From: a virus
Direction: 5' to 3' (one strand)
Virus record (IMG/VR): IMGVR_UViG_3300009151_000053
Location: 18,213 to 82,212 of that record
Length of the DNA: 64,000 nucleotides
Part shown: in pieces, positions 19,685 through 41,703 of the stretch
Position numbering within the stretch: position 1 is the first letter of the stretch
Layout: each line of letters begins with the position of its first letter
The notes under the pieces: generated by a model
What the model saw: only the letters and a program-made list of their open reading frames with translations
What the model was told of the DNA's origin: nothing
The model's database searches: none
Translations under genes and position numbers: made by a program

Positions 19685-20017
19685 ATGTCTATCAAAGCAA
19701 ATATTGTAATCGATCAAGGTGCCGACTACGAAGTCACTATTGATATCACAGACGACAATGGAGACATTGTAGTTCTAACGGGCTATACTGGTGCTGCACA
19801 GATGCGTAAGCACTATACATCAACAACTGCTTATAACTTTGGTGTTAATATCTCACCATTAGTTGGAACTGTTACTCTATCAATGCCAGCAGCAACTTCT
19901 GCTAATATTGCATCGGGTAGATATGTTTGGGATTGTGAACTGACAAGTTCTGCTAATGTTGTCACAAGAATCGTTGAAGGCATTGTTACAGTAACACCAC
20001 AAGTAACGAGGGTATAA
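19685..20017 (+). CDS. Small beta-sandwich fibre-attachment protein (LtfC/p132-like)
   Basis: NIVIDQGAD...LTGYTGAAQMRK...GRYVWD.E...TRIVEG.V.V.P.VT. Confidence 0.6.
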   Translation: MSIKANIVIDQGADYEVTIDITDDNGDIVVLTGYTGAAQMRKHYTSTTAYNFGVNISPLVGTVTLSMPAATSANIASGRYVWDCELTSSANVVTRIVEGIVTVTPQVTRV

Positions 20018-20265
20018 TGGTTCTTAATGCTAAACTGAGAACAGTAAACAACATCACAGCCAGAGTCAATACGACTAGTGGAATCATTACTCCTGTTCCA
20101 CCTATTGTAATCAGAAATCAAATCCAAGAACAAATCTTTAACAGCATTCAAGATTTACCAGATGTTGCGGAGATAAGCGTTACGGACGGCGCAACTCTAG
20201 TGTACAACGCCAATAACGATCTTTACGAAGTCAAGCAACTTGTGATTGATGGTGGCGAGTTTTAA
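20017..20265 (+). CDS. Small adaptor protein ending in IDGGEF
   Basis: 82 aa, TAATG-coupled; L.DV...DGATLVYN and a terminal DGG motif. Confidence 0.65.
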   Translation: MVLNAKLRTVNNITARVNTTSGIITPVPPIVIRNQIQEQIFNSIQDLPDVAEISVTDGATLVYNANNDLYEVKQLVIDGGEF

Positions 20266-23200
20266 TTCGCTCTAGTAAAGTGATAGTCGCCGTCCATAAA
20301 TCCACCACAAAACATTCCGCCAACTTTTACAAAGCCAATAGAGATTAAATAATCTGTAATCTCTTGGACTTTTGGTGCGCCAATGTTGTAATCAACTGTT
20401 TGCATCTCTAGAATAATGTCTTTACAGTTCTTAAGAACTTCAGTAGCACCTCTTAATATGTCAAGTTCTGCACCTTGAACATCCATCTTAATCAGATCAG
20501 GCAGAGGCAATCTTTTGTTTTTAACAACAGTATCTAATGTCATCGCGATCTTTTGAACTTTTGCAGATGGCGGAAACAGTTCTGCTGCCCGTGGGCTTAA
20601 CTCTACATTTTCATCATAATAAGAGTTGCCACCAGGATGTTCTGTGTTTTGATTAAAGTCTACAACTTTAAAGTTTGTGTCTGATAGAACACCCAATGAA
20701 TATTTGTGACCATAATCGTCATACAGAAACTTAACAGCATCCATCGCCTCAAATAACACATACTCGGAATCTGGCCAAACTGGTTTTGCAGCATTTGTCC
20801 AATGAAGTACACATGCGCCAATGTCATAGATTACTTTTGGATTGATACCGCTTTCTTTCATCTTGAAAAGATAATCTATATGTTGTTTTGGTATCAAATC
20901 CATTTTGCCTAGTTCTCTAAGTCTGGTCTGTTCTGGAGTTTCCCCAAAGCATTCCGCTACCGCTTCTTTAAAACCGCTCATATCTGCTATAGGTTTGCCG
21001 TTGTAAAGATTTGTGTTTTGCGATTCCACTCGAAACACACGTTCGCCAATATGACCACAAACGATAGAAGTATCAACCCAAATACCATAACCTTTTGCAT
21101 TTGCTTTTTTACAGAAGTCCAAATCTTCGCTAAATGTGTTAGCAAAATCCAAAGTTTGGTGATAGACAAACTGAGGATAACCAACGCTTGCTAAAACTTC
21201 TTTTTTAACAAGGACGCAACCGAAACCGCAACCACCAATCTCAATGAGACCCCCGTGTTCAAGAGATTCAAAAGGAACATTTCGGAAGTTCTTATCATAA
21301 ATTTCGATAACTTGGGGTTCAAGGCGTTGACGATATATACCACTAACAACGTGCTTATCATGTGAGAGCATCTTCTTTAAAGTATCAGGAGTGAAAATAA
21401 CATCATGGTCCACTGCGAAAAGATAATCATAACTGTTAACAACCCAACTAGCAATAAGGTTGCGGACTTGATCAACGGCATAGCCATAAAAATATTGGAA
21501 ATCTACCTCATAGCCATCAGGCACTTCAAGATCATAGATTGACTTAAAGGTTTGCACTTCAATATATTTGGCTGTTGGGATTGCAATCAGAATCTTCTTC
21601 TTTGGTCCACTCACTTCATTTTTTCCTATCACTTTATTTGCATTTTTTGTTTGCTCTTCACCATTGACTTTGTAATCGTTCAATGGGTTGGCGTCATTGT
21701 AGTTATATAGCACGTCTGGAATACAAACAACTTTGTCTGGATTAGCCAGTTCAAGCATCGTATAGAATACAGCAGTATCACCACCAGCCTTTAGCCAGTT
21801 ACCATTCTCATCTTTGAACGCAGACGTATCTTCAAGTCGCTTAACCAGACTAGAACTAAATGTTCTGAGGTGAGTGTAAGGCATGTTCCATGCAAATCGG
21901 TAATCACGATATGACTTATTCTGTTTTACTTCAGGTGGATATGGTTGAGCAATAAGAGGAATGTTGTCTACAACAGACCAGCAACTTCCGTAAGTAAATT
22001 CCGCACCTTCTTGGTATAAATTATTAATCTTGTGGAAGATATTAGGATCGTTTATTAGCCAATCATCACCATCAACAAGCATAATTATAGACTCGCCATA
22101 ATGCATACTTACGCTTTCTAACATCGTTTCGATTTGGTTACAAACAGCACCTTTATTTTCTTCATTTTTACGAAGAAAGAAATCTATCTCAGTATTATAA
22201 TACATTTGAATTGCTTTATTAGCAACTTCGTATGTGTTATCTGTTGAACAATCATCGATTACCCAAATGGTATAATGTGAATAATCTTGTGCAGCGATTG
22301 ACTTGATACATCTCTCGATATATTTCTCAGCATTATAAACCGGAACGATCACATCAATATGCATGGACCGACGATATCTTGGCTCTTGCAACTCTTCTGG
22401 ATTAGTGAAGCGGCGACCAAATACCTTATGCACATCATGATTGATCTTCGAGACTTTGCGATATTCTGAAACAGGAAGATAATCGCCTAATGCTTTATAG
22501 AAGTGCTGCTTCCACTGAAGAGCAACCGTATCCCATGTGCAGATATCCTTGATCTGATTGCAAGCATACATCTTCTGCTGGTGAAGGTACTTGTCGTTAT
22601 ACGCTCGTTCGAGCATATCAACAAACCGCTCTACTTGAAAATCGGTATTAATATTTGGAAACAAACTGTTCGGCACAATCGGATATGGAACCTTGTAACA
22701 AGCCATATCAATAGCAGTCTCTTCCAATGCACCGAAGTTGCAAGTGACAAGAGGCGTATTATAAAAAAGAGACTCTAGCGTAGAGATGCCAAATGTTTCA
22801 GGAAACGCGGTAGGGTAGACCATATAAGATGCTTTAGCAAGAATCTCTGCGATTTCTTTTTGAGGAATGATTCCAGTGAAGTCGATTTTATCGCCATACT
22901 TTGCAACTAACTCGTGGTATTTTTCCTCTAACTCATCTGGTGGTGAATCATCACGAAACTTGTAATATCCACCAATAACCTTAAGTTTCGCATGTGGAAC
23001 TCGTTCAAGAAATTTTGGCCACACTCTTTCGATAAGAGGAATCATACCCTTTGACACTGATGCATTATAGACAAACAAATCAGGGTCTTTGTCGCGCACA
23101 TCAACCCAATCAATATGCTTCTTCATTCCGTTGCGTGTCTGGAAGATATACTTCTTCATGGTCTCAAACATACGCTTGCCGCCATGATCACAATTACTAG

Positions 23201-40213: not shown

Positions 40214-40216
40214 TAA

Positions 40217-41056
40217 ATGGCAGCACTTGATTTTCCATCAAGTCCAACTAATGGACAGGCTTTTGTTTCAGGCACTACGACGTGGACTTATAGTTCTGCG
40301 AAGGGTGTCTGGAACATCACGTCTAATGGTCCATTAGGAGTCACTGGATACACTGGTTCTCAAGGCGTAATAGGTTACACTGGTTCATTAGGCTACACTG
40401 GCTCTCAAGGCGTTGGTTATACAGGTTCTTCTGGTGCTTATGCTGCTATTGGCTATACAGGTTCTGGTGGCTATACAGGATCGGCAGGAACAAATGGTTA
40501 CACAGGCTCTCTAGGATACTCTGGTTCTCAAGGAGTTGGCTACACAGGTTCTGCTGGTGCTGGTGTAGGTGCTTCAACAAACACACAGATTCTTTTCAAC
40601 GATTCTGCTGCTGCGAACGGCTCATCCAACTTTGTATATAATAAAGCAACAAACGTTATAACTGCATCTGCTAATATAGCAATGGCTAATGCGTATCTAT
40701 CTGCGTTGGTGTTAAAAGCGTATGCTGAAGACAAAACGGTCAACGCGGCGGCTACTGGTACAGTGACGCTCGATCTGTCTACGACAAACGTATTTGATCT
40801 GACACTGACTGGTAACGTGACGTTTGCTTTTAGCAATCCAGCGCCCAGTAGCAGAGTCCAGACCTTTACGATCATTGCTAAACAAGATGTTACAGGTGGT
40901 AGAACAGTAACATGGCCAGCAACGATTTCTAAGTATGCGGGCGGTAACGTTCCACCTGCTACGACAACTGCTAGTGCTATCGATATTTGGACGATTACTA
41001 CATATGATGGCGGAACAACCTATGTTATATCGTTGTCGGTGAAGGATGTTAAGTAA
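40217..41056 (+). CDS. GYTGS fibre with distinct C-terminal domain
   Basis: LDFPSSPTNGQ N-terminus; C-terminal TLDLS..NVF.LTLTGN...QD.TGGRTVTWP...DI....T.DGG. Confidence 0.75.
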   Translation: MAALDFPSSPTNGQAFVSGTTTWTYSSAKGVWNITSNGPLGVTGYTGSQGVIGYTGSLGYTGSQGVGYTGSSGAYAAIGYTGSGGYTGSAGTNGYTGSLGYSGSQGVGYTGSAGAGVGASTNTQILFNDSAAANGSSNFVYNKATNVITASANIAMANAYLSALVLKAYAEDKTVNAAATGTVTLDLSTTNVFDLTLTGNVTFAFSNPAPSSRVQTFTIIAKQDVTGGRTVTWPATISKYAGGNVPPATTTASAIDIWTITTYDGGTTYVISLSVKDVK

Positions 41057-41703
41057 TGCCTATTGGTGGTGGAAAGTTTACATTAGAAAAAACATGGCAC
41101 TCGGCTGCACCTAGCACAACTACACTAAATGCATCTGGTAACTTTACTGTTCCATATGGTAAATATGATATTCAAATCTATGGTTATGGTGGTGCTCCTA
41201 TTCCAGGAAACGTTTCTGGATATAATGATTACTATAACTATGTTTACGTTCCTGCATCTTACAATTCTAACATGATTTATTACGTCACCCAAACATTTTA
41301 TCAACCAGTTAACTTATATACCGGTGCTCCTACTCCAGGATATGGTGGTTCATCTACATCAGGTCCCTACACCACTTACAGTTGTCCAACACCAAATTCT
41401 TACATTGCTTATGGTCCTTATGGTTCCGCTTCTACATATTATAACTATTCATGTTCGCCTGGACCGCCCACTCTTGTTCCTGCATATTCTTATGGCAATC
41501 TTGTTCCTGGAAACCCTAACTATAACCCAAGCAATGTTGCCAATCCAGCAACTCTGATGGGTGCTACGATTCCAGGTGGCTCTACGAACTATTCGGCAAA
41601 TGCTGTTAAAGTTAACTATCAAAACTTTCCAGGCGCTCCTGCTGGAACAGCATATCCAGCAACACTTGCAACTGGAGCACAAATGGTGATTGTTTACAGA
41701 TGA
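41056..41703 (+). CDS. Tyr/Pro-rich putative tip protein
   Basis: TAATG-coupled; SGNFTVPYG..I...G.GG frame enclosing a Y/P/N-rich insert. Confidence 0.6.
   Translation: MPIGGGKFTLEKTWHSAAPSTTTLNASGNFTVPYGKYDIQIYGYGGAPIPGNVSGYNDYYNYVYVPASYNSNMIYYVTQTFYQPVNLYTGAPTPGYGGSSTSGPYTTYSCPTPNSYIAYGPYGSASTYYNYSCSPGPPTLVPAYSYGNLVPGNPNYNPSNVANPATLMGATIPGGSTNYSANAVKVNYQNFPGAPAGTAYPATLATGAQMVIVYR

Follow-up and report, generated by a model that had tools for sequence, protein, structure and literature searches.

Recurring pairs of terminal motifs suggest jointed, collagen-like fibres in a gene cluster of an uncultured T4-like myovirus

Introduction

Does the order of genes in a phage tail-fibre cluster tell how the pieces of its fibres fit together? 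The question is raised by positions 19685-41703 of the 64,000-nucleotide stretch analysed here (the window), which belongs to an IMG/VR contig of 82 kb from a T4-like myovirus. The major capsid protein of this phage shares 62-67% identity with its counterparts in T4-like phages that infect proteobacteria. A preliminary description proposed that about 25 co-oriented genes carry five classes of motif (A to E), each class being followed by a gene that starts with one partner motif, that such neighbours are docking pairs, and that the products build one hierarchically branched appendage of collagen struts with up to about eight different tips.

Results

The region comes directly after baseplate and large fibre genes, and its flanks hold baseplate, sheath, portal, terminase and capsid genes. 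Twenty-four fibre-related genes are on the plus strand, so the proposed co-orientation stands except for one antisense glycosyltransferase gene, which interrupts the run (Table 1), is an insert between the members of a putative joint pair and stays outside the motif grammar. Gaps between plus-strand genes are only -11 to +28 nt, which fits coupled expression; a late-promoter motif, TATAAATA, is at 36419. The cluster matches the Pfam families Collagen, Mtd_N, Gly_rich_2 and ALK_LTK_GRD and several PHROG tail-fibre families, including the N-terminus of the long-tail-fibre distal subunit. All five motif classes were found where they had been described. Each rule has only two to four cases in the window, several of them paralogous (30256/33424, 57-65% identity; 33004/35776, 82%; 28279/39587, 45%), and the window by itself could thus show no more than duplication. 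The tests of adjacency in other genomes show more.

Table 1. Genes at positions 19685-41703 of the window. In the text, genes are named by their start positions.
Coordinates	Strand	Product	Matches and remarks
19685..20017	+	110 aa	N-terminal part of PHROG 1084 (E 8e-28) and PHROG 3304 ('L-shaped tail fiber protein assembly', E 4e-22)
20017..20265	+	82 aa, tail ..VIDGGEF (DGG type)	from translation
20262..23720	-	glycosyltransferase/methyltransferase, 1152 aa	Pfam Glycos_transf_2, Glycos_transf_1, FkbM Methyltransf_21
23767..24579	+	270-aa collagen-like segment, DGG..DCGGVY tail	Pfam Collagen 2.7e-20
24579..26714	+	711-aa fibre: Mtd_N head, three collagen blocks, TLP..IKNI..W end domain (subtype i)	Pfam Mtd_N 2e-14, Collagen 8e-40
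26726..28255	+	509 aa, MAYFE.. start, ELR helix tail	weak discoidin-like match (F5_F8_type_C 7e-5, under cut-off)
28279..28932	+	217-aa MLVQKQVG jelly-roll protein	first MLIQ-family copy
29024..30256	+	410 aa, between chains 1 and 2	no Pfam or PHROG match
30256..31590	+	444-aa collagen fibre, internal WW module (residues 160-199), (S)LPASP..RNGS..W end domain (subtype ii)	Pfam Collagen 1.2e-30; 11-nt overlap with next gene
31580..32269	+	glycine-rich protein, first of tandem	61-65% identical to 32276; pair Pfam Gly_rich_2, 25.1 bits (cut-off 24.3)
32276..32992	+	glycine-rich protein, second of tandem	PHROG 863 'tail fiber assembly' 3e-17
33004..33420 (start also given as 32983)	+	~138 aa, MRHAII..VINV..WDG	PHROG 14370/25252
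33424..34986	+	520-aa fibre: LDFP head, collagen, WW module, collagen, subtype-ii end domain	
34976..35764	+	262-aa glycine-rich protein	Pfam Gly_rich_2, 24.4 bits (cut-off 24.3); 11-nt overlap with 33424, as in the paralogous cassette
35776..36195 (start also given as 35755)	+	~139 aa, paralogue of 33004	
36199..36423	+	74-aa adaptor: LDFP head, DGG..DAGGV tail	
36452..36988	+	178-aa segment: Mtd_N head, WW module, short collagen, hydrophobic tail ..FLIALTVAL	Pfam Mtd_N 1.5e-14
37001..37411	+	136-aa MAVTPNSI jelly-roll adaptor	
37415..38425	+	336-aa head protein: conserved N-terminal peptide (..Q.MSGN..), ALK/LTK-like TNF-like/glycine-rich domain	Pfam ALK_LTK_GRD, 25.7 bits (vs 24.5); PDB ALK ectodomain chains E 4e-13
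38425..38616	+	63 aa, Cys-rich	Pfam DUF6171 6e-7
38643..39131	+	162-aa segment: LDFP head, short collagen, WW module, hydrophobic tail ..MMTFNLAL	WW part: PHROG 3304 and 9729
39141..39575	+	144-aa MKQLL protein, ELR helix tail	
39587..40213	+	208-aa MLIQGQVG jelly-roll protein	second MLIQ-family copy
40217..41056	+	279-aa fibre: LDFP head, collagen, C-terminal beta domain	Pfam Collagen 3.6e-6 (27.1 bits, slightly below the 27.2 cut-off); residues 140-275, PHROG tail-fibre families 9017, 7760
41056..41703	+	215 aa, Tyr/Pro/Asn-rich, final gene of the cluster	no Pfam or PHROG match

Adjacency was counted in other viral contigs, each set of loci being fetched through one partner only, and the background is the frequency of the same motif among the other ORFs (0.4-2% in those loci). 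The sampled contigs are partly related, and Fisher p-values therefore overstate their independence.

In pair A, a protein ending in DGG is followed by one with a KR/RR..GE N-terminus. Three cases are present in the window: 20017 (..IDGGEF), whose next plus-strand gene beyond the antisense gene is 23767 (KR..GELA head); 23767, whose stop abuts the ATG of 24579; and 36199, followed by 36452. The heads of 24579 and 36452 belong to Pfam Mtd_N (54 bits; cut-off 26), and residues 1-50 of 23767 match the N-termini of PHROG 19966, 1699 and 35830, 'long tail fiber protein distal subunit'. Elsewhere a DGG tail precedes an Mtd_N head in 38/52 pairs, compared with 18/877 other ORFs, and proteins of 56-156 aa with LDFP..DGG ends precede Mtd_N genes in six contigs. 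Three other contigs have ..D(S/G)xF tails before KR..GELA-type heads, a weak parallel to 20017. In the cultured phages S-SM1 and RSP15, DGG tails are absent before Mtd_N genes, which counts against reading the pair as a joint.

Pair E, an ELR helix followed by an MLxQxQVG protein, occurs twice in the window (26726 to 28279, 39141 to 39587), the tail of 26726 aligning with that of the MKQLL family. Outside the window an ELR-helix tail comes before the ~210-aa MLIQGQVG jelly-roll protein in 47 of 59 pairs (12/1649 among other ORFs), so this claim, like that of pair A, held up well. The two window copies fall in different clades of the MLIQ family tree and are thus not a recent duplication. More than 1177 homologues of 39587 were found. 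Among the best 150 of 1853 cluster representatives almost all are ~200-220 aa long, with a few partial and the longest of 285 aa, and no fused form was found. Mtd_N, for its part, is never internal, and on both counts the genes encode separate polypeptides rather than pieces of broken genes. Members of the MLIQ family in different phages share 45-60% identity, a degree of conservation that is unusual for a receptor-binding or host-specific tip and speaks against 28279 and 39587 as two of the eight or so tips proposed. In some small contigs the MLIQ gene pair lies between the terminase and portal genes.

For pair D the preliminary description joined a hydrophobic ..AL tail to a small beta protein. 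Both window cases are present (36452 to 37001, 38643 to 39141), but the followers belong to two unrelated families (hhalign probability 0.1%). Counted separately, a hydrophobic tail precedes the 136-aa jelly-roll protein (D2) in 26/29 pairs versus 3/683 other ORFs, and a ..Y.LAL(G) tail precedes the MKQLL protein (D1; 14 full-length homologues aligned) in 5/12 versus 15/1695. The 37001 family is found at 43 loci, with up to 82% identity, and the proteins in the position of 37415 elsewhere have the N-terminal ~35 aa in common and are variable beyond. For both 37001 and 39587 the predicted fold is a jelly roll of the type seen in C1q, TNF and phage cement proteins. The AF2 model of 37001 (pLDDT 91) matches the KHP40 cement protein (Z 9.3), the HFTV1 turret (Z 9.0) and CD40L (Foldseek 8e-4), with capsid cement or turret proteins of Pam1, phage 7-7-1 and BPP-1 among the lower matches; that of 39587 (pLDDT 74) resembles C1q, TNF, BclA and ExsFA (Z 6-9), with BxpB also among its matches. 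Such model-based matches are middling (Z 6-9) and generic for the fold; several of the best are capsid cement or turret proteins, not fibre parts. Neither jelly-roll family, MLIQ or 136-aa, has a Pfam or PHROG family or a match in a cultured phage.

Pair C, a (T/S)LP..W end domain followed by a tip gene, stands in part. The domain precedes a glycine-rich gene twice in the window (30256 to 31580 and 32276; 33424 to 34976) and in 7/11 cases elsewhere, as against 6/1456 other ORFs. However, 24579 carries the other subtype and is followed by the ELR protein 26726, and the C-terminus of 40217 is a different domain. Across contigs the subtype predicts the kind of follower: subtype-i end domains precede MAYFE.. 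proteins in four contigs, with a gap of 10-11 nt. After the glycine-rich gene a ~140-aa protein comes last in the module in 12/12 other contigs, and 33004 and 35776 are likely chaperones rather than tips.

Pair B fared differently. Four proteins have an internal GDxWW..QWVQ module (30256, 33424, 36452, 38643) and four an LDFP..PTNGQ N-terminus (33424, 36199, 38643, 40217), yet one to three genes always separate a WW gene from the LDFP gene that comes next, and in two proteins the motifs occur together; the relation is one of co-occurrence, not adjacency. For 14/15 LDFP-headed genes of other contigs, the 3-6 kb fetched upstream yielded no ORF with a WW module. The LDFP heads are 53-71% identical over 38 aa and, judged by this likeness, probably share one kind of docking site. 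The two motifs open alike (P-x-S-P-x-x-G-Q/D-x-aromatic; hhalign probability 8.6%). The WW module is also the C-terminal part of PHROG 3304 and occurs in cyanophage fibres that have no LDFP partner.

Adjacency is thus conserved in dozens of contigs for A, C, D and E and fails for B, and the core idea of docking pairs survives for those four. The upstream proteins at the A, E and D2 loci have the terminal motif alone in common, with lengths of 59-979, 64-853 and 109-479 aa, respectively, and differing N-termini. Three-gene chains were found intact in other contigs.

Discussion

Motif pairs that recur as neighbours in many unrelated phage contigs suggest reusable joints. Drawing on the motifs, folds and family matches and on the adjacency conserved across many contigs, we think it fairly probable that 19685-41703 holds the tail-fibre genes with which an uncultured T4-like myovirus recognises its host, and that they encode about six linear fibres, each with a collagen-like shaft and made of several proteins jointed in series. 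Consecutive genes would give consecutive fibre pieces, matched by a few reusable joints: a C-terminal DGG..DxGG peptide with the Mtd_N head of the next piece; a TLP..W domain with, according to subtype, either a glycine-rich head plus a ~140-aa probable chaperone or a MAYFE.. protein; a short hydrophobic C-terminal tail with a small adaptor (the 136-aa jelly roll or the 144-aa MKQLL protein), the jelly roll then taking a variable head that bears the conserved N-terminal peptide; and a C-terminal ELR helix with the ~210-aa MLIQGQVG jelly roll as a cap. The putative chains would be 20017/23767/24579/26726/28279 (chain 1), 30256/31580+32276/33004 (chain 2), 33424/34976/35776 (chain 3), 36199/36452/37001/37415 (chain 4), 38643/39141/39587 (chain 5) and 40217/41056 (chain 6). 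From gene order we infer that paired products touch as trimer-to-trimer joints. By analogy with BPP-1 and T4 the N-terminus would be proximal and the C-terminus distal, and the distal ends would be the jelly-roll (or ALK-like) and glycine-rich proteins; that 41056 is a tip is a conjecture.

Conserved adjacency can also stem from co-inheritance of DNA blocks or from chaperone-client pairs. The followers might be assembly chaperones that read a C-terminal tag, aid the folding of the trimer and then leave, being neither joints nor tips. In T4 (gp38/gp57), in lambda and Mu (Tfa) and in the myocyanophage Pam3, a chaperone gene regularly follows the fibre gene; the ~140-aa protein that invariably closes the glycine-rich module and the PHROG 863 match of 32276 agree with such a role, and conserved jelly-roll proteins beside variable fibres would suit a general chaperone. 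We nevertheless judge it unlikely as an account of the cluster, though one to be taken seriously: the D2 jelly-roll protein precedes a third protein, variable apart from its conserved N-terminal peptide, and this suits an adaptor better than a chaperone, glycine-rich domains are fused to shafts or Mtd_N heads in four contigs and are structural there, and Mtd_N proteins are long fibres or receptor binders, not chaperones (PMC2408619). Co-inheritance without function, that is, tandem duplication here and shared ancestry of the other contigs, would explain the clear paralogy of cassettes 30256-33420 and 33424-36195 and the clustering of tail types on the MLIQ tree. It hardly accounts for upstream proteins that are alike only in their terminal motif, for the separate clades of the two MLIQ copies or for the low background in the same loci, and we give it next to no credence.

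The branched tree of the preliminary description, in which all chains are joined because every LDFP head docks in the internal WW module of a preceding strut of collagen, has in its favour the equal numbers of the two elements, the likeness of the LDFP heads and the branched receptor-binding complexes known in other phages (PMC11414711, PMC13352976). It depends on pair B, and there it lacks support: the partners are never neighbours in the window, 14/15 LDFP genes elsewhere open a new module as far as the 3-6 kb upstream of them shows, the WW module is found without LDFP partners, and the two may be versions of one module. A single tree is therefore not supported, the genes parse more simply as about six linear chains, and we consider the branched arrangement improbable. 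More doubtful still is a place on the capsid or neck, where the jelly-roll proteins would be cement-like head anchors gripping the C-terminal tails, as ExsFA/BxpB do with BclA on Bacillus spores. The cement, turret and spore proteins among the structural matches and the MLIQ pairs near terminase and portal genes point that way, but the jelly roll is a common fold at these scores, the jelly-roll adaptor is followed by a variable protein that resembles a receptor binder, Mtd_N and tail-fibre N-termini like that of gp37 form the heads, and the cluster directly follows baseplate and large fibre genes.

Jointed fibres of the kind favoured here have a counterpart in the T4 long tail fibre, in which gp34, gp35, gp36 and gp37 (with the helpers gp38 and gp57) are products of consecutive genes and form non-covalently joined segments. 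The genome is T4-like and the N-terminus of 23767 matches distal-subunit families. Unlike in T4, the shafts are collagen-like (G-X-Y), there would be about six chains instead of one, and the joints (DGG tail/Mtd_N, hydrophobic tail/jelly roll, ELR helix/jelly roll) would be reused within one genome. In the podovirus BPP-1 the C-terminus of the fibre protein Bbp9, ..ADLGGIA, is similar to the ..IDAGGV tails of the present cluster, and 15 nt after the fibre gene begins mtd, whose product has an Mtd_N head; Mtd is located at the fibre ends (PMC2408619). There the Mtd_N protein is a receptor binder with a retroelement-diversified C-type lectin, whereas the Mtd_N heads here bear further collagen shafts that would continue the chain. 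In phages of the T2/S16 type, a separate glycine-rich gp38 adhesin is encoded directly after gp37 and sits at the distal tip (PMC12032242). The cluster likewise has separate glycine-rich head genes directly after fibre genes, but these are Gly_rich_2 or ALK_LTK_GRD proteins, attachment would be through the TLP..W domain, and a further ~140-aa gene follows. The Pam3 fibre gp24 has a TNF-like and glycine-rich distal module, and the small downstream gp25 binds it 3:3 (PMC9608196); the ALK-like module of 37415 and, by position, the ~140-aa proteins are comparable, except that the module here is a separate polypeptide and in Pam3 belongs to the chain of the fibre itself.

Docking peptides and branching domains are a published concept for phages with several receptor-binding proteins, among them the CBA120-type Ackermannviridae and Klebsiella phages KP32, K11 and KP34 (PMC13352976, PMC11414711). 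The general principle, a terminal docking element and a cognate domain that allow modular exchange, is the same. Those proteins are tailspikes with T4 gp10-like or branching domains, neither of which was seen in the cluster, and the shafts here are collagen-like; the specific joint families appear to be undescribed. Beyond phages, the combination of a collagen-like triple helix with a jelly-roll trimer recalls C1q, collagen X NC1 and BclA. This likeness is one of fold only (Z 6-7), and the head there is usually fused to the stalk, whereas here it is a separate gene product. Among the structural matches the ExsF-anchor complex (9h3d) is a jelly-roll trimer that holds the terminal peptide of a collagen-like fibre.

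Genome setting and gene layout

The source IMG/VR contig is 82 kb long and is estimated to be about 48% complete; the window covers its bases 18213-82212. The genes flanking the fibre cluster (baseplate wedge, large fibre proteins, terminase, sheath, portal and major capsid protein) have the layout of a T4-like myovirus. The capsid protein shares 62-67% identity with its counterparts in T4-like proteobacterial phages, namely Stenotrophomonas DLP6, Sinorhizobium phiM12 and phiN3, Pelagibacter Mosig and Methylophilales Melnitz. The cluster itself (19685-41703) holds 24 plus-strand genes, which are named here by their start positions, with intergenic gaps of -11 to +28 nt. 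An antisense glycosyltransferase gene sits exactly between gene 20017, whose product ends in ..IDGGEF, and gene 23767, whose product begins with a KR..GELA head; its position suggests that a putative joint pair was split when it inserted there. On the plus strand, the late-promoter motif TATAAATA occurs within the cluster only at 23684, which is inside the 5' end of the antisense gene, and at 36419. Promoters therefore do not mark the limits of the chains into which the fibre genes can be parsed, and the idea that late promoters bound these chains was rejected.

The Peptidase_S74 domain of the collagen-like fibre upstream of the cluster means that another fibre-folding solution is also used. 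The DUF7936 protein comes just after this fibre and before a 194-aa protein that the preliminary description called a tip. The DUF6171 protein lies between the ALK-like head gene (37415) and the next fibre gene with an LDFP N-terminus.

Coordinates and domain matches of individual genes in and beside the fibre cluster
Feature	Position	Strand	Domains and remarks
642-aa collagen-like fibre	16834-18762		Upstream of the cluster; C-terminal Peptidase_S74 intramolecular-chaperone domain (Pfam, 1.2e-12)
104-aa protein	18765-19079		Pfam DUF7936 (1e-17)
1152-aa protein	20262-23720	minus	At least two glycosyltransferase domains (GT1-type and GT2-type) and an FkbM methyltransferase domain
63-aa four-cysteine protein	38425-38616		Pfam DUF6171 (6e-7)

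Family matches of the fibre proteins

The N-terminal heads first recognized as a KR/RR..GE motif in 24561/24579 (one gene) and 36452 are matches to Pfam Mtd_N (PF18454) at residues 5-50, with 53.6 and 54.1 bits, respectively, against a cut-off of 26.3. An internal Mtd_N was not found in any fetched locus. Residues 1-50 of 23767 match PHROG 19966, 1699 and 35830, the T4-type distal subunit of the long tail fibre (gp37 class), with E values of 3e-11 to 3e-9. Pfam Collagen (PF01391, cut-off 27.2) was matched by 23767 (72 bits), 24561 (135), 30256 (105) and 16834 (88), while 36452 (23.2) and 40217 (27.1) fell just below the cut-off; 33424 is covered by PHROG collagen and tail-fibre families. The matches of 31562 and 34976 to Pfam Gly_rich_2 (PF21722) are both marginal, at 25.1 and 24.4 bits for a cut-off of 24.3, and a PDB sequence search with the Gly_rich_2 alignment gave nothing useful. 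In 37415, ALK_LTK_GRD (PF12810) scored 25.7 bits against a cut-off of 24.5, and residues 51-160 match the ALK/LTK ectodomains of PDB 7NWZ, 7N00 and 7NX0 with E values of 4e-13 to 2e-11.

PHROG 3304, annotated as L-shaped tail fiber protein assembly and 177 positions long, is matched in two places. Positions 7-113, its N-terminal part, align with 19685-20017; positions 123-167, in the C-terminal part, align with the WW modules found in 33424, 36452 and 38643 (for example 36665-36784). Since 19685 and the WW modules correspond to two parts of PHROG 3304, they are one protein in other phages.

Conserved adjacency of tails and following genes

The preliminary description proposed that recurring tails or domains of one fibre gene are each followed by a gene with a particular partner motif, and every motif it named is present in the window. 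The DGG tail precedes its head in three cases (rule A), among them the 20017 and 23767 pair now parted by the antisense gene. There are two cases each for the hydrophobic tail (rule D), for the ELR tail (rule E) and for the TLP..W domain with a glycine-rich follower (rule C). Many of these repeats are paralogues, so the window alone cannot tell a grammar from tandem duplication.

For each rule, we fetched IMG/VR loci with one partner only as the query and then compared the neighbour with all other ORFs of the same loci. The four adjacencies were kept in other contigs. The DGG tail stood before Mtd_N in 38 of 52 pairs, as against its presence in 18 of 877 other ORFs, and the ELR tail stood before a protein of the MLIQ family (28279 and 39587 in the window) in 47 of 59 pairs, as against 12 of 1649. 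For the hydrophobic tail, the values were 26/29 versus 3/683 before the 37001 family and 5/12 versus 15/1695 before the MKQLL protein. The TLP..W domain preceded a glycine-rich protein in 7 of 11 pairs and was present in 6 of 1456 other ORFs. The Fisher p-values, from 1e-7 to 1e-69, overstate independence because the samples include related contigs. Qualitatively, it is still clear that the tail and the next gene stay together while the remainder of the upstream protein is swapped.

The upstream proteins illustrate this exchange. Those of rule A range from 59 to 979 aa and have unrelated N-termini, and they share the tail consensus (N/F)(L/I)DGG..Y..(I/L)D(A/G)GG, usually 0-50 nt from the Mtd_N gene. 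Those of rule E end in a ..L.EL(R/K)..N....R.D helix whether they are 64 or 853 aa long. Fibres before the 37001 family end in tails such as ..FAIAAAL and ..IAFAVAL, and the gene downstream of that family, at a gap of 0 nt, encodes a conserved N-terminal peptide of about 35 aa and a variable, often glycine-rich body, the same layout as 37415. Homology of the short MKQLL proteins to 39141 extends over the full length. A relation between 37001 and the MKQLL family was considered and rejected as none was found, so rule D has two different followers.

In rule C, a protein of about 140 aa came after the glycine-rich gene in 12 of 12 cases. The end domain occurs in two subtypes, and the subtype predicts the kind of follower: PASP..RNGSTI precedes glycine-rich genes, and ..IKNI.. 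precedes MAYFE.. proteins with ELR tails, as seen in four fetched loci (L037, L043, L046 and L070) and in the window.

A further conserved adjacency, absent from the window, was seen in other contigs. A protein of about 107 aa with the motif MP.N(F/Y)..TTVYNPTT.GVQAT ... VDV.(V/I)S..EV(S/T) is followed at a 0-nt gap by an ELR-tailed MSYIG.PFADNTNL protein and then by an MLIQ protein (L029, L050, L054-L060, L075, L079 and L080). A candidate rule in which a small protein precedes an LDFP gene found support in the window and L109 alone and was rejected.

Among cultured phages, a megablast search with 28000-42000 gave no match and a search with 39141 gave weak matches only. The Mtd_N genes of S-SM1 and RSP15, tried as cultured examples of rule A, have no DGG tail before them. 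BPP-1 shows a degenerate form of the rule, in which bbp9 ends in ..ADLGGIA and mtd, with its Mtd_N head, begins 15 nt on.

Two families of jelly-roll proteins

The MLIQGQVG family (about 210 aa) has more than 1177 homologues and 1853 cluster representatives at 50% identity, and has no Pfam or PHROG match. Among the best 150 of the 1853 representatives, almost all are 200-220 aa long, with a few truncated and the longest at 285 aa; no fused "Rosetta-stone" form was found among these 150, nor among longer proteins, where the absence is weak evidence. The two copies in the window belong to different clades of the family tree and are thus not a recent duplicate. In small contigs (L053, L065, L072, L073, L078 and L082), the MLIQ gene lies outside a fibre cluster, between terminase-like and portal-like genes, and its ELR-tailed partner is very short (64-104 aa).

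As modelled by AlphaFold (pLDDT 74), 39587 consists of a conserved N-terminal arm that is disordered, a single helix and a jelly roll, and the model matches C1q, BclA, ExsFA and Eiger TNF with Z of 6.1-6.9 and the HFTV1 turret with Z of 8.8. The 136-aa protein 37001 is modelled as a jelly roll (pLDDT 91), with the trimeric KHP40 cement protein (Z 9.3), the HFTV1 turret (Z 9.0), YomS (Z 8.7) and CD40L (Foldseek, 8e-4) as best fold matches. The models clearly place both proteins in the jelly-roll fold class of beta sandwiches, and both may be trimers of the C1q/TNF-like family. DUF6143, an ESM Atlas lead for the identity of both, had no Pfam support even at E 10. Neither family gave a tblastn match in 50,697 cultured-phage records.

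The LDFP heads and branching

It had also been proposed that a WW module is followed by an LDFP head (rule B), and this pairing failed. The window has four WW modules and four LDFP heads, and no LDFP gene there stands directly next to a WW gene. In other contigs, 14 of 15 LDFP-headed genes had no detected WW-bearing ORF upstream within the 3-6 kb fetched; there, LDFP genes open a new module after the previous one ends. An hhalign comparison of LDFP with WW aligned only 11 columns at a probability of 8.6%, and the LDFP head, searched as a profile against PDB, gave no match. A branching domain like that of T4 gp10, which in branched receptor-binding complexes of the CBA120 and KP32 type belongs to a primary protein and pairs with a docking peptide of secondary ones, was absent among the top Pfam and PHROG matches listed for the fibre proteins. 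The branched-tree model depends on rule B and is not supported. The broadest proposal is of a combinatorial connector code common to uncultured aquatic phages. It would comprise four or more orthogonal joint families, in each of which a terminal peptide or domain has its cognate partner, and fibre architecture could then be read in gene order. Here, in addition, four near-identical LDFP heads would dock on four WW nodes that interrupt the collagen shafts, and the result would be a branched tree of collagen that bears several different heads. Taken whole, we consider this proposal improbable.

Discussion

The genes most simply parse into about six linear chains, whose consecutive products may be joined end to end in the T4 manner, as gene order and its conservation suggest. 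In T4, gp34-37 are assembled in gene order. Of the four joint types proposed, three have a precedent, and it is because of these precedents (BPP-1, the T4-type distal subunit match, gp38 and Pam3) that we read the tails and heads as putative non-covalent joints. Mtd is at the ends of the tail fibres of BPP-1 (PMC2408619); with that literature and the DGG-tailed neighbour as a guide, Mtd_N may be a trimeric head by which its protein is attached to another fibre's end. Judged by gene order, folds and precedent, the C-termini of fibres would carry the two small jelly-roll proteins as an adaptor or cap, and distal heads would be formed by the glycine-rich and ALK-like proteins and by the variable protein encoded after 37001. 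Straboviridae gp38 is a known separate adhesin, glycine-rich and placed at the fibre tip (PMC12032242). In Pam3, a TNF-like and glycine-rich distal module has a downstream 3:3 chaperone (PMC9608196). On the same grounds, the proteins of about 140 aa (33004 and 35776) may be chaperones; they agree with the gp25-type chaperone of Pam3 in position and size only; that chaperone has an N-terminal beta-sandwich and a C-terminal helical trimerisation domain, and a PDB sequence search with such a protein gave no useful match.

That the conserved partners beside variable fibres are chaperones and the tails their tags would explain rules D and E about as well as joints do, and for the proteins of about 140 aa this is probably right. 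Its fit is poorer where the adaptor is followed by a third, variable protein, and where, in other contigs, glycine-rich domains are fused to shafts. The joint reading has also to be set against one in which the fibres belong to the capsid, which we keep alive: the cement and turret fold matches favour it, as does the MLIQ pair between terminase and portal genes in small contigs, while the tail-fibre heads and the genomic position oppose it. Pure co-inheritance is an unlikely source of the adjacency, as the upstream proteins have only their tails in common.

Multi-protein fibres decide the host range of phages, and their architecture in uncultured phages is currently not predictable. If the motif pairs are true joints, metagenomic gene order could directly reveal the order of assembly, and which pieces are distal and bind receptors, in a very large group of phages, given the size of the MLIQ family alone. 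In fibre engineering, such joints would serve as defined swap points, as the branching-domain and docking-peptide pair does in Klebsiella phages. For two large families of viral proteins without annotation, MLIQ and 37001, the analysis provides a first context and a fold. Targeted full-text literature searches found no paper describing these joint families. Tailspike systems (PMC13352976, PMC11414711) are established cases of conserved docking elements that plug receptor-binding proteins together, and so are the fibres of T4 and BPP-1; what appears to be new is this set of joint families in particular, the fact that one genome reuses them several times, how widely they occur in uncultured phages, and that the shafts they connect are collagen-like.
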